A stretch of DNA of 33,982 bases from a virus (Duplodnaviria; Caudoviricetes). Each line of letters opens with the position of its first letter. Positions within the stretch are counted from its first letter, which is position 1. The translations under genes and the position numbers were made by a program. Below are positions 1,029-33,982 of the stretch, piece by piece. Where the stretch lies: IMG/VR virus record IMGVR_UViG_3300037465_000379, positions 1 through 33,982 of that record; one strand, written 5' to 3'. The notes beneath the pieces were generated by a model, which was given only the letters and a program-made list of their open reading frames with translations, made no database searches and had not been told where the DNA came from.

Positions 1029-3071
1029 ATGCCTCTCGACGAGGGCGCGCTGGCCTACCAGGACTTGGCGATCGCTTGGGGAGGCGCGCTCAAGCCCGAA
1101 CCGGCGATGACGGTGTCGGAGTGGGCCGACCGGCATCGGGTGCTGGGCAATCGGCAGGCGGCCGAGCCCGGGCCCTGGCGGACGTCGCGGACGCCTTACC
1201 TGCGCGCGATCATGGACGCGCTCTCGCCGTCGCATCCGGCGCGGCGTGTGGTTTTCATGAAGGGGGCGCAGATCGGCGGCACGGAATGCGGGGTCAACTG
1301 GCTCGGGTTCATCATCCACCATGCCCCGGGCGCGATCCTGGCGGTGCAGCCGCACCTGGACCTGGCGAAGCGGTTCTCGCGGCAGCGCATCGACGCCCTG
1401 ATCCAGGAGACGCCGGCGGTGCGCGATCTGGTGGCGCCTGCGAAAGCGCGCGATCGTGCGAACAGCACGCTCATGAAGGAATTCCCGCTGGGCGTGCTGG
1501 TGATGACGGGGGCCAATGCGCCGGCCGGTCTGCGGCAGATGCCGGTGCGGTACCTGTTCCTGGACGAGGTGGACGCCTATCCGGTCTCGGCGGGCAAGGA
1601 GGGCGACCCGATCGCGCTGGCGGAGGCCCGGACGCAGAATTCGTCCTGGCGCGCGAAAATCTTCCTGGTCTCGACGCCGACGCTGGAGGGGGCGTCGCGG
1701 ATCGCGGACGAGTACGCGCGGTCGAACCGGCAGCGCTACTTCGTGCCGTGCCCGCATTGCGGTCACCGGCAATGGTTGCGCTGGGAGCGGCTGTCCTGGC
1801 GGGAAGGCGAGCCCGAGTCGGTGGTCTACCTCTGCGAGGCGTGCGGCGTCGGCATCGAGGAGCGGTACAAGACCGAGATGCTGACGGCGGGCTCGTGGGA
1901 GGCGACGGCGACGTCGGAGGACCCGCACACGGTCGGGTTCCATCTGTCGTCGCTCTATTCGCCGCTGGGGTGGTTGTCCTGGGCGTCGATCGTGCGGCAG
2001 CGCGAGCGGATCGTCACGGACGAGCAGCACCAGGCGTTCAAGAACAGCGTGCTGGGCGAGACGTGGCGGCCGCGGGGCGAGGCGCCGCCGTGGGAGGCGC
2101 TCCTTGAGCGGCGCGAGGAATGGTCGCCGCGGGCGTTGCCGGCGGGCGTGCTGCTGCTGACCGCCGGGGTGGACGTGCAGGGCGACCGGCTGGAGGCCCG
2201 GGTGTGGGGCTGGGGCCGAGGCGGGCAGCGCTGGCTCGTGGCGGTGGCGGTGATGCCGGGTGACCCGGCGCGTGCCGAGACCTGGCGTGGCGTGGACCAG
2301 ATGCTGAGCAGCGCGTGGCCGAGCGAGCTGGGTGGGCAACTGCAGATTTCGCGGATCGCGGTGGACACCGGCTACGCCACCGAGGACGTCTACACCTGGG
2401 CGCGGCGCTACGCGGCGTCGCTGGTGATGCTGGTCAAGGGCGACTCGCGGCGGCTCGGGGCGATCGGGGCGCGGCGTGCGGCGGAGGTGACCTCGCAGGG
2501 CAAGTCCCGGCGCTACGGGGTGCACGTCTGGCCGGTGAACCCGGGCCCGCTGAAATCCCGCCTCTACGGGGCGCTGCGGCAGCCCGCGCCCGGTGCGGGC
2601 GAGCCCTGGCCGCCGGGCTGGGTGCATCTTCCGAGCTGGTGCAGCGAGGACGAAATCCGGCAGCTCACCGCCGAGCAGTTGGTGCGGATCATCACGCGGT
2701 CGGGTGTCCCGAAGTTCGAATGGCAGTTGCCGTCGGGGCGGCGCAACGAGGCGCTGGACTGCGCGATCTACGCGCACGCGGCGGCGATCTCGCTCGGGAT
2801 CGACCGCTGGGCGGAGCAGCGCTGGGCGCAGTTGGAGCGGCAACTGACCGTCGCGCAGCGCTCGCTCTACGAGCTGCTGGACCGGCCTGACGCGCCCGCC
2901 GCGCCGGCCGAGCCGGCCGCCCCCGAGGCGCCCGAGGCGCCCGACGGGCCGCCGGGGCCGGTGCCGGTGCCGCCGATCGTGACGGGGCGCCTGCCGGCGC
3001 CAGGGCGGCCCGGTGCGGTGGGCCCGCCGGCGTCGCGGCGCCGGGTGGTCACGTCGAGCTACGTGCTCTGA
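1029..3071 (+). CDS. terL: Terminase large subunit, lambda GpA family
   Basis: Motifs TVSEWAD, GPWRTSRTPYLR, KGAQIGGTE (Walker A), LFLDEVDAY (Walker B), STPT, CPHC..CEAC, GVDVQ, DTG and RNEALDC; Pro-rich C-terminal tail. Confidence 0.97.
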   Translation: MPLDEGALAYQDLAIAWGGALKPEPAMTVSEWADRHRVLGNRQAAEPGPWRTSRTPYLRAIMDALSPSHPARRVVFMKGAQIGGTECGVNWLGFIIHHAPGAILAVQPHLDLAKRFSRQRIDALIQETPAVRDLVAPAKARDRANSTLMKEFPLGVLVMTGANAPAGLRQMPVRYLFLDEVDAYPVSAGKEGDPIALAEARTQNSSWRAKIFLVSTPTLEGASRIADEYARSNRQRYFVPCPHCGHRQWLRWERLSWREGEPESVVYLCEACGVGIEERYKTEMLTAGSWEATATSEDPHTVGFHLSSLYSPLGWLSWASIVRQRERIVTDEQHQAFKNSVLGETWRPRGEAPPWEALLERREEWSPRALPAGVLLLTAGVDVQGDRLEARVWGWGRGGQRWLVAVAVMPGDPARAETWRGVDQMLSSAWPSELGGQLQISRIAVDTGYATEDVYTWARRYAASLVMLVKGDSRRLGAIGARRAAEVTSQGKSRRYGVHVWPVNPGPLKSRLYGALRQPAPGAGEPWPPGWVHLPSWCSEDEIRQLTAEQLVRIITRSGVPKFEWQLPSGRRNEALDCAIYAHAAAISLGIDRWAEQRWAQLERQLTVAQRSLYELLDRPDAPAAPAEPAAPEAPEAPDGPPGPVPVPPIVTGRLPAPGRPGAVGPPASRRRVVTSSYVL

Positions 3072-3093
3072 GGCGGCGGATGGAGAGGGGCTG

Positions 3094-4410
3094 ATGGAGA
3101 CTGAGCGGCTGCAGGTGCAGCGCTGGCCGATCGGGCGGCTGCTGCCCTACGCGGCGAACGCGCGGACGCATTCGCCCGCGCAGGTGGCGCAGATCGCAAC
3201 GAGCATCGCGCGGTTCGGGTTCAACGTGCCGTGCACGGTAAACGGGCAGGGCGTGCTGATCGCCGGGCACGGGCGGCTCCTTGCGGCGCAGAGCCTGGGC
3301 ATGCAGGAGGTGCCCGTGATCGTGCTGGACGACCTGTCGGAGACGCAGGTCCGGGCCTACCGGCTGGCGGATAACCAGATCGCCCTGAACGCGTCCTGGG
3401 ACCAGGACCTGCTGGCGGCCGAGGTGGCGGCGTTGCGGGACCTGAACTTCGACCTGCCGGTGCTGGGCTTCGCGGACCGCGAGCTGGACGAGATGCTGCG
3501 GGCGGTGGACCAGCCGGCGGCGGCGGCGGGGCGGGACGAGGACGCGCTGCCGGAGGTCCCCACGACGGCGGTCACGCGCCGCGGCGACCTATGGCAACTG
3601 GGGCGCCATCGGCTGCTGTGCGGCGATGCGACGGCGGCGGCGGACGTGCAGCGGCTGCTGGATGGCGCCGTGCCGGTGCTGATGGTCACCGACCCGCCCT
3701 ACGGGGTGAATTACGACCCGATGTGGCGGGCCCGGGCGCGGCCGCAGCAGCCGCGCGGGACGGTGCCGAACGACGACCGGGCCGATTGGAGCGATGCGTG
3801 GCGGCTGTTCCCCGGGGGCGTCGCCTACGTGTGGCACGCGTCGTTGCAGATGCCGGCGGTGTGGGCCTCGCTGGTGGCGGCGGGCTTCGAAATCCGCAAC
3901 GCGATCATCTGGGTGAAATCGCGCATGGCGCTCAGCCGCGGCGACTACCATTGGCAGCACGAGCCGTGCTTCTACGCCGTGCGGCGCGGGGCCCGCTCGA
4001 ATTGGCAGGGCGATCGGACGCAGACGACCTGCTGGATGATTGCGCCGCACAGCGATTATGGGGATTTGTTCCACGGCACCCAGAAGGTGGTGGAGTGCAT
4101 GCGCCGACCAATCGTGAACAACACGGCGCGGGGCGAGGCGGTCTACGATCCGTTCGTCGGCTCGGGCACGACGCTGATCGCGGCGGAGGACACCGGGCGG
4201 GTCTGCTACGCAATGGACATCGACGAGCGCTATTGCGACCTGGCCATCGTGCGGTGGCAGCAATGGACCGGCGAGGCGGCCCGCCTGGTGGACGGCGGGC
4301 AGACGCTGGCGGAGCTGCAGCTCGCCCGGGAAGTGCGGGTGCCGGCGCCGCCTCCCGCGGCCAGGATCAGCAGGCGGTCAGGAACCCCTGCGCGACGAGC
4401 GAAGCGATGA
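3094..4410 (+). CDS. ParB-like N-terminal domain fused to N6A/N4C DNA methyltransferase
   Basis: ParB/Srx-like NARTHS..QVAQIA.SI..FGF..IAGHGR..YRLADN; catalytic TDPPY; SAM-binding DPFVGSGTT. GGAGAGG upstream of ATG 3094. Confidence 0.92.
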   Translation: METERLQVQRWPIGRLLPYAANARTHSPAQVAQIATSIARFGFNVPCTVNGQGVLIAGHGRLLAAQSLGMQEVPVIVLDDLSETQVRAYRLADNQIALNASWDQDLLAAEVAALRDLNFDLPVLGFADRELDEMLRAVDQPAAAAGRDEDALPEVPTTAVTRRGDLWQLGRHRLLCGDATAAADVQRLLDGAVPVLMVTDPPYGVNYDPMWRARARPQQPRGTVPNDDRADWSDAWRLFPGGVAYVWHASLQMPAVWASLVAAGFEIRNAIIWVKSRMALSRGDYHWQHEPCFYAVRRGARSNWQGDRTQTTCWMIAPHSDYGDLFHGTQKVVECMRRPIVNNTARGEAVYDPFVGSGTTLIAAEDTGRVCYAMDIDERYCDLAIVRWQQWTGEAARLVDGGQTLAELQLAREVRVPAPPPAARISRRSGTPARRAKR

Positions 4411-27182: not shown

Positions 27183-28529
27183 ATGCCGGCAGCACAGCCG
27201 ATGAACCCGAGCCGCCGCAATGCGTTGTTGTGGCTGCCGCGGCGGGAGGCACCGCTGGTGCCGGACGTGATGCTGGATTTCGAGACGGGCGCCGGCATCC
27301 CGCTCGAATTGGGCGGCATCGGCGGACCTGGCTCCGAGCTGGTGCAGGCAACGACGCCGCAGTCCGGGGTCGGGTTCTACAAGCGCGTCGCCAAGGCCTA
27401 CGACCCTGCGTGGCAGGGCTACCCGCTATTCGATTTGAAGCCGGCGAACCAGCTGGTCGGCTGGCCCGGCCCGCGCGCGGGCGGCTACTGGACCGGGCCG
27501 ATGTCGGCGCTGTCCAGCGTCAGCGAGACGGTCTCTGGCTACAACTCGACCACCGATCTGGCCGTTACGCCCGTAGCCGGCGGCGCGGTCGGGCCGGATG
27601 CGATTCGGTGTGATGTTGCCGCGGGGCAGAGTGGCGGCGGGTTGGCATTTTCGCCGAAGCCTACGATGACGTCCGGGTGGTACGTCGGCAGCAGCGGCAC
27701 AATTGTTTATGCGCATGCGGTCGTCGAGATCTTCAGCGACCCAGCAATATTCGAGCCCCGCGTGGGGTTGCGTGACGAAGGGGCCGGGACGTTCATCGAG
27801 ACCACGACGCAGAGCCTTGCCGCCGCAGATGGGCCGCGCTCAGGCAAAGTCCACCGCGGCACCGGCCCGCACGGCGGGCAGCTCTATGAGTGGTGGGGGA
27901 TCGCCCGGCTCCTGACGACGCCGACCGGGCCGTTGGCCGGGTATCTATACCTCCTCAATGCGCCGGCGGCGTCCGGCTTTCCGGCGCGCACAATCATCGT
28001 GCACGGGGTGCAGGTCTATTTTGTGCCGCGCCTGGATACATGGCCGATACATGGCGTGCCGCCATTCTTTTCCTACGCCCGCGGCGCGCCCGTGGTCTGG
28101 ACCGCGGAGAACCTGAATATCAACGGCGTGACTGGGGCGTATTCATTGGGGCTGCGGGGCCGCATAACGGCTTATGATACTCTTGGACTTGCGCTCACTT
28201 ATGCGCGGCTCTTCAGCCGTAATAATAACGCGAATGAAAGCGTTTATACAACGAGCGCGTCCGCGCTTGCAAGCTGGACGCCGTCGTTCACTGTGCCAGG
28301 TTTGGCCGATCGCGCGGTTGTGGCGGTGGACGCCGGTTACGGACGCCGAGCCACAGTGGACGGGGTAGCGGTTGTTGTTGGCAGCGCGTTCTCAACGCCA
28401 GCGCCAGCCCCGCAATACATTTCACTCGGCAGACCGGACGATTACTTCTACGGGCGGTTCCACAAGGCCGCGCTTTGGCGACGCTCGCTGACCGATGCCG
28501 AGATGTTGCAAGCATTCGGAGGGTTGTGA
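27183..28529 (+). CDS. Putative fibre/spike receptor-binding protein with LamG-like C-terminus
   Basis: GGAGG RBS; LDF near the N-terminus; terminal SLG....YFYGRFHKAALWRRSLTDAEM pattern. Visibly more AT-rich codons than neighbouring genes. Confidence 0.65.
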   Translation: MPAAQPMNPSRRNALLWLPRREAPLVPDVMLDFETGAGIPLELGGIGGPGSELVQATTPQSGVGFYKRVAKAYDPAWQGYPLFDLKPANQLVGWPGPRAGGYWTGPMSALSSVSETVSGYNSTTDLAVTPVAGGAVGPDAIRCDVAAGQSGGGLAFSPKPTMTSGWYVGSSGTIVYAHAVVEIFSDPAIFEPRVGLRDEGAGTFIETTTQSLAAADGPRSGKVHRGTGPHGGQLYEWWGIARLLTTPTGPLAGYLYLLNAPAASGFPARTIIVHGVQVYFVPRLDTWPIHGVPPFFSYARGAPVVWTAENLNINGVTGAYSLGLRGRITAYDTLGLALTYARLFSRNNNANESVYTTSASALASWTPSFTVPGLADRAVVAVDAGYGRRATVDGVAVVVGSAFSTPAPAPQYISLGRPDDYFYGRFHKAALWRRSLTDAEMLQAFGGL

Positions 28530-29032
28530 TGCGCGCGTTGGAGCTGATCAACTGCCCCGACCCGCGCGCGACCGTGCGCGCGGCCGTGGGCGCCACCCGT
28601 CGGCTGGCCAGCCTAGCCGAGGCGCTGGCCCCGCGTGAGATCGAGGAGCCGGGCGGGCAGCGCCGGACGGTCGAGCCGACGACGGCCGAGCTGGACGGGG
28701 CCAGGGTCCACGTGATCTCGATCACGCAGGAGCGGCGGGCCGATGAAACCGTTACCGCGCCGCAGGCTGTGGTGATCGTGGACGGCGAGCGCGCCGAGGA
28801 GGTGGTCGAGCTGATCGACGGGGCGCTGGCCGCGCGGGCGAAGGCAACGAAGGCCGACCACTACGAACTGCCGGGCGGGGCACAGGTGGTGCTGGCAGGC
28901 CCCGCGATCGCCGAGACCGGCGCCGCGCCGCGAAAGGCGCGCGCCGCGCGGCTTGCGCGGCTCGAAGCGATCAAGGCAGAGCTGTCGGGCGAGGTGATGA
29001 TCGTCGAGGCTGAGAAGGGGATCGCGCGATGA
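28529..29032 (+). CDS. Hypothetical protein
   Basis: GGAGGG RBS, TGATG coupling to the upstream gene, and typical GC-rich codon usage. Confidence 0.7.
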   Translation: MRALELINCPDPRATVRAAVGATRRLASLAEALAPREIEEPGGQRRTVEPTTAELDGARVHVISITQERRADETVTAPQAVVIVDGERAEEVVELIDGALAARAKATKADHYELPGGAQVVLAGPAIAETGAAPRKARAARLARLEAIKAELSGEVMIVEAEKGIAR

Positions 29033-29085
29033 GCTGGTTCTGGGGTGGTGGCCGCTCACGCGGCAAGAGGCGCCCGGCGCCGTGA
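29029..29085 (+). CDS. Candidate 18-aa micro-ORF MSWFWGGGRSRGKRRPAP
   Basis: ATGA overlap with the upstream stop, GTGA overlap with the downstream start, and GAAGGGG upstream. Confidence 0.45.
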   Translation: MSWFWGGGRSRGKRRPAP

Positions 29086-29459
29086 CAACGCCGCCGTCGT
29101 CCTCCGATCCTGTGGTGGCCGCCATTTCCCGCGAGGTCGGGCAGCTCGCGGCGATCGTTCAGGTGCTGCGCGAGGAGGTGCAGGGAATTCGGCACGATCG
29201 GCACGGCCTGCTGCAGGACGTCGCGGCGCTGCGTCCCTTGCCGAGGATGTTGGCCGACATGAGCAGCGAGCTGCGCACGCTAAGCGACCAGGTCGCCTCG
29301 ATCACCGTCCGCCTCGCAGCGGCGGACGCGGTCCGCGACGATCACGAGAGAGCCGGAGTGTGGGTCCGGTGGGGATTTCCTCTCGTCTGGGCGGCCGTGG
29401 TCGGGGTCTTCGCGTGGTTTGCGACGTGGTGGAACGGAACGAAGGGCGGCGGGAATTGA
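29082..29459 (+). CDS. Coiled-coil protein with one C-terminal TM helix (holin/antiholin-like)
   Basis: Heptad-like N-terminus and hydrophobic WGFPLVWAAVVGVFAWFATWW; directly before the endolysin. Confidence 0.7.
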   Translation: MTTPPSSSDPVVAAISREVGQLAAIVQVLREEVQGIRHDRHGLLQDVAALRPLPRMLADMSSELRTLSDQVASITVRLAAADAVRDDHERAGVWVRWGFPLVWAAVVGVFAWFATWWNGTKGGGN

Positions 29460-30082
29460 GCGAGCCGCGCGGGATCAGGAACAACAACCCGCTCAACGTC
29501 GAGCGGACGGGCCGCGACCGCTGGGTCGGGATGGCCGACGCCCAGACCGACGATCGGTTCGTCGTGTTCACGTCGCCGGAGTGCGGCATCCGGGCAGGAG
29601 CGCTGATCCTGCAGCGCTACCAGGACAAGCACGACCTGCACACGATCCGCGAGATCATCGCCCGCTGGGCGCCGGCGACCGAGAACGACACCAATGCCTA
29701 CGCCGAGGCCGTCGCCCGGCGGGTCGGCGTCAAGCCGGACGATCCGGTCAACGTGCAGGACTACCGCACCGCGCGCGCGATGATCGAGGCGATGATCCGG
29801 CTGGAGAACGGCCGACAGCCCTACCCGCCAAGCGTGATCGACGAGGGGCTGCGGCGCGCCGGCATCGTGCCAGGCCGGCCGCGCTCGATCGCGGCCGCGG
29901 CGCGGACCGACACCGCCACAGGCAGCGTCGCCGCGACCGTGCCCACGGCAGCAGCCGGCGCCGTCGCAGCGGTGGCGCCGCAGCTCTGGGGGCTCGACTG
30001 GCGCGTGGCGGTGGTGGCGATCGTCTCGGTCGCCGTGGTGGCCGTGGTCGCGGTGCTGATCTGGCGCAGCCGGAGGGATTGA
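29456..30082 (+). CDS. Putative endolysin (lysozyme-like RGIRNNNP family) with hydrophobic C-terminal tail
   Basis: PRGIRNNNPLN, F.SPE.GIRA, TIREII.RWAP..ENDT.AY and IRLENG. The TTG start overlaps the upstream stop. C-terminal VAVVAIVSVAVVAVVAVLIWRSRR. Confidence 0.82.
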   Translation: MSEPRGIRNNNPLNVERTGRDRWVGMADAQTDDRFVVFTSPECGIRAGALILQRYQDKHDLHTIREIIARWAPATENDTNAYAEAVARRVGVKPDDPVNVQDYRTARAMIEAMIRLENGRQPYPPSVIDEGLRRAGIVPGRPRSIAAAARTDTATGSVAATVPTAAAGAVAAVAPQLWGLDWRVAVVAIVSVAVVAVVAVLIWRSRRD

Positions 30083-30240
30083 TGGTGGTCTCGCTCGGCG
30101 AGCTGTTCATCCTCTCGCTGGCGTTCGGCGCGGGAGGCGCGGCCGTGGCCGTCGGCGTGCCCGCCTGGGCCGTCATCGGTGCGCCGCTCGCAGTCTGCGC
30201 CGCCGTGCTGATAGTCGAGCTGTCCGGCGGCCGACCGTGA
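30082..30240 (+). CDS. Small two-TM membrane protein (holin candidate)
   Basis: 52 aa, almost entirely hydrophobic; GGAGGG RBS; coupled at both ends. Confidence 0.6.
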   Translation: MVVSLGELFILSLAFGAGGAAVAVGVPAWAVIGAPLAVCAAVLIVELSGGRP

Positions 30241-30488
30241 AGCGGCAATACCGCCACGTCTGGGCCGCCGTCTGGTGGGACGGGCAAACCTGGGTCGCCA
30301 ACACCACCGGGCAGCCCGAGCGTGAGGGATCGGGCGAGACGATCGGCGCCGCGCTGGGCATGCTTGAGGCCGCGCTCGCGGACCGAGCTGCCCACAACCT
30401 CGGCGTGCTCGACGGCACGCCCGACCCGGATCTGCCGTGCTCCTATCTCGTGGCGCGCGTGCGCGTACGCGCGCCGGGCGTGTCATGA
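30237..30488 (+). CDS. Small protein with HicB-like (partial RNase H fold) pattern
   Basis: VWAAVWWDGQTWVA....P..EGSGETIGAALGMLEAAL; GTGA and ATGA overlaps on both sides. Confidence 0.6.
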   Translation: MKRQYRHVWAAVWWDGQTWVANTTGQPEREGSGETIGAALGMLEAALADRAAHNLGVLDGTPDPDLPCSYLVARVRVRAPGVS

Positions 30489-30886
30489 TCGGCTGGGCGC
30501 TCGGGCTCGCCCGCGGGCTGCTCGGTGGCGGCGCGGCGTGGCTGCCGGTCGCCATCATCGTGCTCGCCGTGGCCGGCGGGCTCGGGCTCGGCTGGTGGCG
30601 CCTTGAGGCGGCCCGAGCGGATGCCGCCGCCGCCCGCGCCGCACGCGACCAGGCGATCGCCGCCGAGGCGGTCGCGCGGGCCGAGCGGGATCAGGCACGG
30701 GCGGCCCTCGCCCGTGGCGAGCAGGAGCGCACCCGCGCCCGCGAGGCTGCCCGTGCTGCCGAGGCGCGCAGCACGACGATCAGGCGCGAGGTCGAGGCAA
30801 TGCGGAAGCGCTTGGCAACGGTGGCCGACGGTCGCGCCCGGTGCGAGGGCGCGCTCAATGAGATCAGGCGGGAGATGGGCAGATGA
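30485..30886 (+). CDS. Inner-membrane spanin (Rz-like)
   Basis: N-terminal TM (WLPVAIIVLAVAGGLGLGWW), long Ala/Arg coiled coil and a Cys near the C-terminus. Confidence 0.75.
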   Translation: MIGWALGLARGLLGGGAAWLPVAIIVLAVAGGLGLGWWRLEAARADAAAARAARDQAIAAEAVARAERDQARAALARGEQERTRAREAARAAEARSTTIRREVEAMRKRLATVADGRARCEGALNEIRREMGR

Positions 30887-31134
30887 TGGCGCGCATCGCA
30901 GCCGCGCTGCTGCTGGTCCTGCTGATCGGCGCGTGTGCCGGGTCGCCGCGCGTGGTCGAGATCGCGCCGCTGCTCGCCTGTCCGGTCGTAGACGGCAGCC
31001 TCTGGCAGGCAGGCGCCCTGCCCGACGGCCTGCCCGCCGATCCAGCCGACGCGGTGCTCGCGCTCTGGCGCGCCTATCTTGAGCGTGGCGCCGCCCTGGA
31101 CGCCATCCACCAGCAGCTTGATGGCGGGCGGTAG
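30883..31134 (+). CDS. Outer-membrane spanin lipoprotein (Rz1-like)
   Basis: Signal peptide with lipobox LIGAC and a Pro-rich mature part; ATGA overlap with the Rz-like gene. Confidence 0.75.
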   Translation: MMARIAAALLLVLLIGACAGSPRVVEIAPLLACPVVDGSLWQAGALPDGLPADPADAVLALWRAYLERGAALDAIHQQLDGGR

Positions 31135-31250: not shown

Positions 31251-32231
31251 GTGATACCGGGACGTCGTAACCTCTTGATCGCCGGGGCCGCAGGGCTCGC
31301 CGCCGCAGCGCTGCCGCGGGCCGCCGCCGGGCAGTTGTTCACGCCCACATGCAAGCAGACCGACAAGCGCCCAGCCGTGAAGCCGGGCAAGCCGTGGGTC
31401 AAGCAAGCCTGCCGCACCTACAACGTCGTGGGTGAGTACGGCTCGGGCATCTGGACCAGCCCGACCCGGCTCCTCAACTGGACGCAGCGCAAGGGCGTCG
31501 TCTACCGCCGCGAAATCAACACCAACCCCGGCGGGGCGATCGCCGTTCGGACGGCGGAGATCGCCTGCACGTTCAACCGGGGCGCCTCCGGCGCGCCCTA
31601 CACCAACTGGCGGGCGGTCGGCGTGGCGTTGCACCCCGCCAACCTCAACCAGGCGCTGTTGATCGGCGAGCTGATGGACACCTACGACGGCGGCGAGTAC
31701 CGCGCCGAGTGGTGGGCGACCTCGACCGACCAGGGCCGCGTCTGGACGATCGGTGGGCCGGTGGTCCTGCCCGACGTGCCGGTGGCGCCGGTGTGGCAGG
31801 CGACTTCGGGGCTGGCCTGGCTGCCGGATGGCCGGCGCATCTGGATGACGCCGGGCGCGGGGGCGCCGACGCGGGTGAACGTCTACGAGAGCCGCGACGG
31901 GCGGACGTGGTCGCTGCTTGCGGCCAACGTCTGGCCGTGGTCGGAGGACACGGCCCAGTTCCTCTCGCTGGCCGTCACGCCGGCGGCCTGGCATGCGGTG
32001 GCGTTGAACGCCTGGCACCAGCAGAACAGCCTCCGGCGGGTCCGCCACGCGGTCTCGACCGACGGCGGCCGGTCCTGGCGCAAGCGCTACAATGACATTG
32101 CGACCGGCTCCGGCCCGTTCGCGATGGTCGGAAACTCGGAACTCAAGGCGCCGATCATCTCGGCGCACCCGGACGGCGTCCTCGCGGGCTGGTACGGCGG
32201 GCAGGTGGCCTGGCGGCACGCGGCGCCCTGA
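31251..32231 (+). CDS. Tat-signal, Asp-box (BNR) repeat beta-propeller protein, sialidase-like fold
   Basis: GRRNLL, h-region and AAA cleavage site; Asp-boxes STDQGRVW, SRDGRTW and STDGGRSW; GGAG RBS before GTG. Confidence 0.8.
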   Translation: MIPGRRNLLIAGAAGLAAAALPRAAAGQLFTPTCKQTDKRPAVKPGKPWVKQACRTYNVVGEYGSGIWTSPTRLLNWTQRKGVVYRREINTNPGGAIAVRTAEIACTFNRGASGAPYTNWRAVGVALHPANLNQALLIGELMDTYDGGEYRAEWWATSTDQGRVWTIGGPVVLPDVPVAPVWQATSGLAWLPDGRRIWMTPGAGAPTRVNVYESRDGRTWSLLAANVWPWSEDTAQFLSLAVTPAAWHAVALNAWHQQNSLRRVRHAVSTDGGRSWRKRYNDIATGSGPFAMVGNSELKAPIISAHPDGVLAGWYGGQVAWRHAAP

Positions 32232-32427
32232 CGCCATTCGCGGAGATGCCGGTCTGTCAGCCGGGCACGCTGCGCGGCAGCGCGGACCTGGGCAGCGCGA
32301 TCATGCCCCTGCTACCCTACCTGCTGCGACCCGGCACGCTCCCCGCCCCCCCCGTCGGCCGCCGCCCCGGCCCGGCTGGAGGCGCCAGAGCCGCCGGAGG
32401 CCGCCGCCTCGACCCGGAGCCCGTCAC

Positions 32428-32530
32428 GGAGGCCCCAAATCGCCCCGTAGGGCCCCGATCCGGGGGGGGCGGTGGTTTTAAGGTAGCGGGGCGGGGCGAT
32501 CGTGACCCTACGCGCCCCGCAGGCGCCCTG
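32428..32530 (+). repeat. Dispersed imperfect palindromic element, copy 3
   Basis: cgccccgtagggccccgatc...GGTAGC(32482)-10nt-GATCGtgaccctacgcgccccgcaggcgccctg. 32441-32460 matches the reverse complement of 14562-14581 at 19/20 positions. Confidence 0.75.
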
Positions 32531-32562
32531 GCGACGGGGTCGCCGAGGAGGCACGGACGCCC

Positions 32563-32823
32563 ATGTCGGACCCATCGCGTCGCTGGCCGTGGCGGTACCT
32601 GACCGTCGCGCTGCAGCCCCTGCCGCAGGGCTGGCGGGCCCGGCTCACCGCGCACCCCGAGGTCGTCGTCGACGGGCCGGGCCCGGGCGAGGCGCTCCTG
32701 GCGCTGCAGGAGGAGGTGACCCGCCGCGCCGCCGCAGGCCAGCGCCTGGAGGCCGGCACGGATACCGCCCTCCTCGACGCCCCCTACCTCCTGGGCCGGG
32801 TTCGCCTGCCGATCGGCGATTGA
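32563..32823 (+). CDS. Small protein with HicB-like pattern (second copy)
   Basis: GAGGAGG RBS; YLTVALQPLPQGWRARLTAHPEVVVDGPGPGEALLALQEEV. Confidence 0.65.
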   Translation: MSDPSRRWPWRYLTVALQPLPQGWRARLTAHPEVVVDGPGPGEALLALQEEVTRRAAAGQRLEAGTDTALLDAPYLLGRVRLPIGD

Positions 32824-32894
32824 CCGGAGCCATGCGCCGGACGCATGCCCGCACCGTCAACTACGCAATGGTCGCCCGCCGCCGGGTCGGGTAG

Positions 32895-33330
32895 GACTGC
32901 CGGCGTCGATCGGCCCCACCGCGCGGGACGCGCGGCCGGCGTAAGGCGCCGGGGGCACGGACTTGCACCGTGCCCGAATGGAGACCGAAGCGGCGGCCGG
33001 TGAGAGCAACAGCCGGTCGTGCAGCAGGCTCCACCGAAAGGCGAACAGGCCCGCGACCGGGCGGGCACGGAAGGCTGCGGCTGGGGCCGGTTCGGCCACC
33101 CCAGCCGGAAGCGCAACGGGACGCCGGCGCGCAAGCCGTAAAGCCCTGAAGCCTCGACGGAGGATCGCCCGCGGGTGCTGGTCACGCCTGACGGGTGTAC
33201 GCGGACCCCCGGTCGCCCGCCGGGCGGCCCATTCGAGGGCCGGAACCCACCACAGCGTGCTCGGCTACCTGGTCGGGAGGGCATCTGGGCTGCAGCGGGC
33301 GGCGGGTGGCGACACCCGCCGCCTTCGCTC
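32895..33330 (+). ncRNA. Candidate large structured non-coding RNA, family not recognised
   Basis: About ten consecutive stems, long-range helix 32899-32907/33120-33128, GNRA- and UUCG-containing loops, G-U pairs consistent with the + strand, and no credible ORF. Confidence 0.65.
33298..33323 (+). terminator. Strong hairpin (3' end of the candidate RNA or terminator-like)
   Basis: GGCGGCGGGTG-GCGA-CACCCGCCGCC is a perfect 11-bp stem with a GNRA loop. Only a short TT follows, so intrinsic termination is uncertain. Confidence 0.5.
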
Positions 33331-33437
33331 ATGCTGTGACACCCCCCCCGACAAAAACGCAATGGTCGAGGCCCATGCCCTCGCTTAACGTCCACGCGCC
33401 GCCCGGAGTGATTGGGCGGGGCAAGGATGGCAAGGAC

Positions 33438-33866
33438 ATGAAGCCCAAGCCCGACGCATTGCGCCGCGCCACCGCCAAGGCAGCGGCGACCGTGCTGATC
33501 GCCGCCGGAGCGGTGGCGGCCGCACACCACTACGGCCAGCGCGCCGCCGCGGCGGCGCAGGACGAATGCCGCACGGTTAGCGACGCCGTGATGGCGTTCA
33601 TCAAGACGCGCTCCGTGATGCCGGCCGACGGCGAGTTGCACGTCGCCATATGGAGGCACCGCCGCGGAAGCCGCATCGTGCTGCTGATCAACCCCAGCGA
33701 TGCAACCGGTGAGATCCTGCACGTCCTGGACGACGATGCGGGCGTCGGGATCGAGCATCTGATCACATGCTTCTCGGTCCCGGTTTACGACGCCGGCGTC
33801 GCCGGCAAATCGCCGCCCGCGGCGCGCAACCTCGTGCCGCGTGACGGCAAGAGATCGACGCGCTGA
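33438..33866 (+). CDS. Hypothetical exported or membrane-anchored protein
   Basis: AAGGA upstream; basic N-terminus then hydrophobic AAATVLIAAGAVAAA; two Cys in the mature part. The start is uncertain (alternative ATG 33375). Confidence 0.55.
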   Translation: MKPKPDALRRATAKAAATVLIAAGAVAAAHHYGQRAAAAAQDECRTVSDAVMAFIKTRSVMPADGELHVAIWRHRRGSRIVLLINPSDATGEILHVLDDDAGVGIEHLITCFSVPVYDAGVAGKSPPAARNLVPRDGKRSTR

Positions 33867-33982
33867 GCGCGTTGCTCAGCCTGAATGCACCCTGGGCAGG
33901 TCGACCCGCTCGTCCAGGGCGCGCGCGAGCCGGTCGACGAGCCGCGCGAGCCGTACGGTCGCCTCCCAGGTGGCGCGCCGCT

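Follow-up and report, generated by a model that had tools for sequence, protein, structure and literature searches.

A candidate folded RNA in a non-coding gap of the accessory region of an uncultured freshwater phage

The window analysed here, all 33,982 nucleotides of IMG/VR record IMGVR_UViG_3300037465_000379, is the entire linear record of an uncultured freshwater phage, and the collection estimates its completeness at 68%. A lambda-like morphogenesis block that runs from terminase to tail fibre is followed by endolysin and spanin genes, the lysis cassette (29456-31134, plus strand) being made up of an endolysin, a small membrane gene, an Rz-like spanin and an Rz1-like lipoprotein. Between the terminase and the portal, at 3013-4410, lies a ParB-like domain fused to a DNA methyltransferase, an arrangement that is found also in Ralstonia and Paracoccus prophages. 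In prophages of the Roseococcus family there are terminases that match along most of the protein at up to 55% identity (matches at E 1e-100 in 45 of 401 genomes), but those of Ralstonia prophages come close at 51-52% identity, so the host can be narrowed just to what is probably a GC-rich proteobacterium. Among the sequencing runs listed, the whole stretch is present in one only, a freshwater metagenome, and none that contains the segment studied here is an RNA run. The two DNA runs that were mapped agree with the window and show no variants within the folded segment; one of them is probably where the record came from.

The lysis genes are followed by a 326-amino-acid gene, a gap of 330 nt, an 86-amino-acid gene, a gap of 550 nt and a 163-amino-acid gene, and the window ends 116 nt beyond the last of these. 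The genes that flank the 550-nt gap all lie on the same strand. The product of the 326-amino-acid accessory gene (31251-32231) has at its N-terminus a stretch that looks like a signal sequence, and it matches BNR/Asp-box weakly; its relatives are distant (24-35%), bar two short near-identical records. The 86-amino-acid gene (32563-32823, plus strand) is predicted to encode a HicB-antitoxin-like or integrase-arm-like fold (TM about 0.7 to HicB-like clusters, with feature scores below 0.9), and its product is possibly a solo antitoxin-like protein or an accessory protein that binds RNA or DNA; no hicA-like gene was seen upstream. The 163-amino-acid gene (33375-33866, plus strand; 142 amino acids if the start is at 33438) belongs to no family, and neither of these two proteins has a sequence homologue among 5.8 billion clusters. 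The smaller gap (32232-32562) folds with a z-score of about -1 and carries an imperfect inverted-repeat element at 32430-32527. This element has no match in the phage collection; there is a similar copy on another 6.2-kb contig of run X1 (15 differences and 4 gaps over 98 nt), and by eye it resembles positions 610-720 of L145, a long contig with related lysis genes.

The larger gap (32824-33374) is 550 nt long, has a GC content of 75% and separates two accessory genes. It is here that the first-pass annotation had placed a structured RNA, at 32895-33330, in an interval that it described as lacking any credible open reading frame, and our analysis bears out that description. With a codon model trained on 12 phage genes, the six frames of the gap score from -0.31 to -0.55 and ten neighbouring genes score from -0.03 to +0.35; just 3 of 72 tiles of the contig score as low as the gap. 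None of the eight overlapping open reading frames that were looked up is present in the collection as a called protein; ten sequences were looked up in this way and the only one present was the 326-amino-acid gene. When the overlapping frames were used as queries, none of the candidate stretches among the matches listed was confirmed in metagenomes (0/597) or genomes (0/600), and none of 17 was confirmed in viral sequences.

Two copies of a 19-nt imperfect direct repeat, both on the plus strand, bracket the folded block. The first is at 32856-32874 and the second follows 494 nt later at 33350-33368, just before the 163-amino-acid gene. The copies are identical at 16 of 19 positions with an exact core of 12 nt, they align over 27 nt at 81%, and the contig contains no third copy at up to three mismatches. 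A pattern drawn from its own two copies matches twice where 0.03 matches are expected, and no shuffle among 100 reaches two. The motif was found in none of 401 bacterial genomes and none of 155 loci, and it does not fit the sigma-70 scan. We infer that the repeat is a candidate shared promoter or operator; alternatively, it may be a duplication that flanks an insertion. An imperfect palindrome at 32821-32861 overlaps both the stop codon of the 86-amino-acid gene and the first repeat; with arms TTGAC (32819-32823) and GTCAA (32856-32860) and an inner ATGCG/CGCAT pair, it is a possible operator.

The helices of the segment are present as complementarity in the DNA, with all 15 of the arms that were checked found literally where they had been reported, and the fold described here is the predicted pairing ensemble of this single sequence. 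The 5' domain (32898-33129) is closed by a long-range helix, originally proposed as 9 bp starting at 32899 and 33120, which the ensemble extends to 10 bp (32898-32907/33120-33129) with a mean pair probability of 0.94. Within it, three abutting hairpins of 7, 7 and 8 bp (32919-32975; probabilities 0.96-0.98) are stacked without a linker, and they are followed by an interrupted helix (32979-33041) that consists of 32979-32983/33029-33033 and 32993-33001/33012-33020 and then a 2-bp GAAA-capped hairpin. The internal loop of this helix (GAA/AGCA) is purine-rich and resembles a bulged-G, or E-loop, motif. In the ensemble there follow a 6-bp hairpin at 33049-33066 and a 9-bp hairpin at 33078-33107 whose 12-nt loop has possible pseudoknot partners at 32908-32913, 33042-33046 and 33055-33060. 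An 11-bp pairing of 32908-32918 with 33082-33092 competes with this 9-bp stem, at probabilities of 0.30 and 0.67, respectively. The 3' domain (33131-33293) is predicted to form a long interrupted stem, a three-way junction and a branched tip, and here the ensemble departs from the original proposal: rather than a closing helix at 33142/33287 it favours 33134-33137/33288-33291 and 33143-33147/33278-33282, and rather than a local hairpin at 33214-33226 it prefers to pair 33214-33219 with 33192-33197. The last element of the block is an 11-bp hairpin with a GCGA cap and a 4-bp base (33294-33329; pair probability 1.0), which is terminator-like apart from having no U-run. In a bacterial locus, L200, convergent genes have a similar stem between them, and this likeness suggests a terminator-type stem, with the U-run missing. 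A scan of the plus strand turned up neither a sigma-70-type promoter nor a U-tailed terminator.

The proposal that the segment folds better than chance stands in part. Against dinucleotide shuffles, z-scores of -2.58 for 32895-33330 (reached by 0 of 100 shuffles), -3.56 for the 5' domain at 32895-33130 (0 of 200) and -2.31 for the 3' part at 33130-33335 (4 of 200) were obtained with boundaries that had been picked from the fold itself, but the whole gap (32824-33374), whose boundaries were unselected, gave -2.0 (2 of 40). The plus strand folds better than the minus strand over 32880-33340 (-2.28 versus -1.12), and the z-score of the 5' domain is below those of all 72 contig tiles of the same length, the lowest of which is -2.72. 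Perfect hairpins of at least 7 bp number four versus 0.87 in shuffles (5 of 300 shuffles reach this), the highest count of 154 contig tiles; hairpins of at least 5 bp are not enriched (11 versus 9.6; 113 of 300 shuffles). Five 150-nt segments starting at 33001-33201 have z-scores of -0.95 to +0.27, no better than shuffles, and one of 59 control segments of the same length elsewhere reaches -4.33. The folding signal is strong just in the 5' part, about 150 nt, and in the last hairpin. It does not exceed what is ordinary for GC-rich intergenic DNA in related bacteria: among 43 GC-matched non-coding control tiles of 236 nt, taken from 36 related loci, five reach a z-score of -3 or lower on the better strand. 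Two bacterial non-coding control tiles, L203:2427-2662 and L245:631-866, have z-scores of -7.6 and -6.6 and no Rfam match at the thresholds used.

The argument from A-rich linkers in an otherwise A-poor genome fails because the segment has nearly the A content of the contig (15.4% versus 14.5%) and its A residues are as unpaired as those of shuffles (pairing probability 0.219 versus 0.224). GNRA and UNCG tetraloops with two closing pairs are marginally in excess (7 versus 3.2; 41 of 1000 shuffles), and with three closing pairs the numbers are 2 and 1.3 (385 of 1000). The count of potential pseudoknots (19 versus 6.6; 3 of 200) was set aside as support because its control was crude and most of the candidates share one GC-rich loop.

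No homologues were found when patterns, BLAST, nhmmer and covariance models built from the single sequence were used to search collections of viral, metagenome and bacterial sequences, and the set of phage and metagenome relatives that the first-pass annotation had envisaged collecting with nhmmer and BLASTN did not materialise. Five exact-pattern scans of viral contigs returned 1, 27, 19, 17 and 25 loci; none of these 89 extends past the pattern, and the best nhmmer E-value among them was 0.42. BLASTN gave matches of up to 42 nt in eight phage records and of up to 53 nt in two plasmid records, a 47-nt match in one of 401 class-level genomes, and 18-nt matches in two of the 50 terminase-related viral records searched out of 80. 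Within the Roseococcus family, 51 of 401 genomes have short scattered matches, the longest being 86 nt at 74%; of 28 loci that were scored again, the terminator-like stem of L200 came out highest. The segment was missing from all of the loci anchored on the endolysin, 11 in metagenomes and 33 in genomes. Two covariance models, R1 (32915-33070) and R2 (33128-33297), had the window alone as their positive control. Beyond the window R1 gave weak matches only: one in 85 sources, and others in two of 151 genomes and three of 45 genomes that carry prophages; these scored 14-28 bits, compared with 178 for the self match, and their alignments break many of the pairs or span the three hairpins only. 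R2 found nothing in 45 genomes and itself alone in 75 sources. Diverged copies would escape an exact pattern, and the genomes sample a host group that was itself a guess; the status of homologues is 'not found' and not 'absent'.

One close relative of the lysis genes was found on a long contig, L145, with 74-81% DNA identity over the endolysin and spanin. The lysis module and parts of the preceding genes are common to 27257-31121 of the window and L145:1538-5489 at 70-81% DNA identity. Past its lysis genes L145 carries a terminase together with head and tail genes of the podovirus type; the segment is missing within 10 kb downstream of the lysis genes, in the 14.3 kb examined, and when R1 and R2 were run there unfiltered the best scores were 10 and 12 bits. 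The shared stretch suggests that a lambda-like siphovirus and a podovirus-type phage have exchanged modules in a common host.

The explanation that we favour, at roughly an even chance, is a stand-alone and trans-acting folded RNA gene in the accessory region of the phage. It is favoured because the gap is non-coding in six frames and its plus-strand fold beats shuffles while the minus strand is weaker, because its hairpins of at least 7 bp lead 154 tiles and its 5' domain lies below all 72, and because a closing helix of 10 bp at a probability of 0.94 encloses hairpins that are stacked without linkers. The motif comes first, then the folded block with its terminal hairpin, the motif again and the next gene, an order that fits two small transcription units, and large folded RNAs are known from phages and prophages (PMC12286853, PMC5737381). 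The same explanation is weakened because there is no homologue, the unselected gap reaches just -2.0 and the middle third behaves like shuffles; because five of the 43 control tiles do as well, A residues stay unpaired just as often in shuffles and the tetraloop excess is marginal; and because the plus strand offers neither a sigma-70-type promoter nor a U-tailed terminator and the contig has none of the tRNA genes that usually accompany GOLLD and ROOL.

Other explanations draw on the same observations. An unusual protein gene, either the 141-amino-acid frame that starts with TTG (32963-33388, plus strand) or a 324-amino-acid frame on the minus strand, is very improbable: both frames are open, but their codon scores are -0.40 and -0.45, their GC3 values of 0.76 and 0.72 compare with 0.85-0.95 in the neighbouring genes, and they have no family and no confirmed relatives and are not called as genes. 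It is unlikely that the gap holds a cluster of cis-acting elements in which a promoter at the first repeat is followed by a leader that can adopt two structures (an attenuator, an antiterminator or a processing site) and then by a terminator-type hairpin controlling how far transcription reads through to the 163-amino-acid gene and whatever follows the end of the contig. The mutually exclusive pairings of the 33078-33107 hairpin and 32908-32918/33082-33092, the resemblance of the last hairpin to the stem between convergent genes in L200 and the common strand of the flanking genes are all in keeping with such a cluster, but the alternative pairing leaves the terminal hairpin untouched, the downstream gene owns a copy of the repeat and Rfam has no cis-element that matches.

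We assign a similarly low probability to the absence of any selected long-range structure, in which case the gap would hold a few real short signals (a promoter repeat, a terminator stem and three small hairpins) and the other helices would have arisen by chance in DNA that is 75% GC. The modest score of the unselected gap, the control tiles at -3 or lower, the flat signal over 33000-33300, the ordinary number of hairpins of at least 5 bp and the lack of a conserved copy in anything searched are what this account would lead one to see; the longer hairpins, which exceed those of shuffles and of every other contig tile, and a 5' domain that beats 200 of 200 shuffles are harder to reconcile with it, and a 550-nt gap in a densely coding contig needs a reason. 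More improbable still is that a mobile element, for instance a group I or group II intron or a small non-autonomous insertion, entered between the direct repeats and has since decayed, leaving some residual structure. The repeats bracket the folded block exactly and 33133 partially matches the 5' strand of group II domain V, but there is no 3' strand of that domain, no group II 5' end on the plus strand and no group I core; the Rfam intron models are negative, no gene is interrupted, the flanking genes match no reverse transcriptase, endonuclease or transposase family, three of the 19 repeat positions differ between the copies and the element is single-copy in the contig.

If the favoured explanation of a stand-alone RNA is correct, the product would be a non-coding RNA of about 440-450 bases with two multi-helix domains and a terminal hairpin in its predicted fold. 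It would be transcribed on the plus strand from the repeat at 32856-32874 and would end near 33329, at the last hairpin, while the second copy of the repeat would drive the next gene. Its tertiary folding might depend on loop-loop or pseudoknot pairings of the 33087-33098 loop and on the E-loop-like internal loop, and it could work in trans as a compact scaffold for binding, as has been proposed for GOLLD and ROOL. Most speculatively, it might bind a host or phage protein, or its own copies, to the benefit of the phage in the lysogen or late in infection. The further proposition that it is the first of a new family of pseudoknotted two-domain RNAs of about 450 nt in phages of GC-rich proteobacteria that have a promoter to themselves, lack a link to tRNAs and self-assemble or sequester a host protein, as has been suggested for GOLLD and ROOL, is tentative and in our estimation somewhat doubtful. 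What had been suggested as a possibly undescribed large phage RNA is non-coding, phage-borne, better folded than shuffles on the plus strand and without a match in Rfam, but its folding signal stays within the range of GC-rich intergenic DNA; it is a plausible orphan lead for a large phage RNA and not a discovery.

The classes of large folded phage RNA are few and of unknown function, and two of them form RNA-only cages (PMC12286853). A shorter, very GC-rich RNA in an accessory region that lacks a tRNA would, if real, widen the known range, and the size of the candidate suits synthesis, probing and imaging; a lone sequence cannot yet test anything by comparison.

Comparison with known RNAs began from Rfam, which gave no match at gathering thresholds for the whole contig. 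The matches at E 10 (11 in 32200-33982, of which 2 are in 32850-33360) are far below the cut-off and we regard them as noise. The statement that there are no signatures of RNase P, tmRNA or a group II intron also holds: ARAGORN, Rfam and motif scans were negative bar the partial domain-V-like word at 33133. ARAGORN found no tRNA or tmRNA on the contig, itself 68% complete, and tmRNA, tRNA, RNase P and SRP RNA were rejected as no tRNA-like domain or conserved core was found. Group II and group I introns resemble the candidate in size and in having a multi-domain fold. A group II intron was rejected for want of a domain V partner strand, a plus-strand 5' end, splice ends and an Rfam model match. 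The group I model produced no candidate (2 of 14 controls scored over the cut-off), the P3/P7 core motifs are absent, and a group I intron was likewise rejected, the position being intergenic with no core, no interrupted gene and no Rfam match; subgroup IE introns may be poorly covered by RF00028. Apparent similarities to RNase P, SRP, permuted tmRNA, HEARO and subgroup IE introns were discarded since the defining pairings or a model match are missing, and the hammerhead motif is absent. The two flanking genes match no reverse transcriptase, IscB or TnpB of the kind that would accompany a retron, a DGR or an OMEGA-type guide RNA, in a contig that ends 116 nt downstream. In the literature on large non-coding RNAs of alphaproteobacterial prophages we found no report of such an element, and the portion of the PMC10690425 supplement that was searched contains no matching candidate viral RNA.

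The candidate likely belongs to no catalogued family, to judge from these sequence comparisons, and its nearest analogues are GOLLD, ROOL and the raiA motif. Like GOLLD (RF02032) it is phage-borne and multi-helix, and its predicted fold comprises two domains with a short linker between them; in GOLLD the 5' and 3' domains are separate, and that RNA is known from sequences of lakes and of phages (PMC12286853). GOLLD, however, is often longer than 800 nt and often near tRNA genes, whereas the candidate is about 440 nt in a gap of 550 nt with no tRNA, and it has neither a match to the GOLLD model nor known covariation; the model, which represents the conserved 3' domain, gave no candidates at E 10 in a search in which 5 of 14 controls gave matches below the cut-off. 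ROOL (RF03087), described as a large folded RNA of phages and prophages with an unknown function (PMC5737381, PMC12286853), has its setting in Ligilactobacillus and the rumen, in contrast to a candidate whose host is probably a GC-rich proteobacterium; the ROOL model did not match, a negative that is the weaker because no positive control matched either. The raiA motif (RF03072) had no match at E 10. It is about 200-250 nt long with a P3/P4/PK1/PK2 core whose pairings cannot be drawn on the candidate by eye, although a few short purine-rich words occur in a similar order when the candidate is compared by eye with the published sequence. The raiA RNA contains an E-loop motif and acts in trans (PMC12968392). 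By analogy, the candidate may act in trans in the manner of the GOLLD and ROOL cages and of the trans-acting raiA RNA while being a member of none of these classes.
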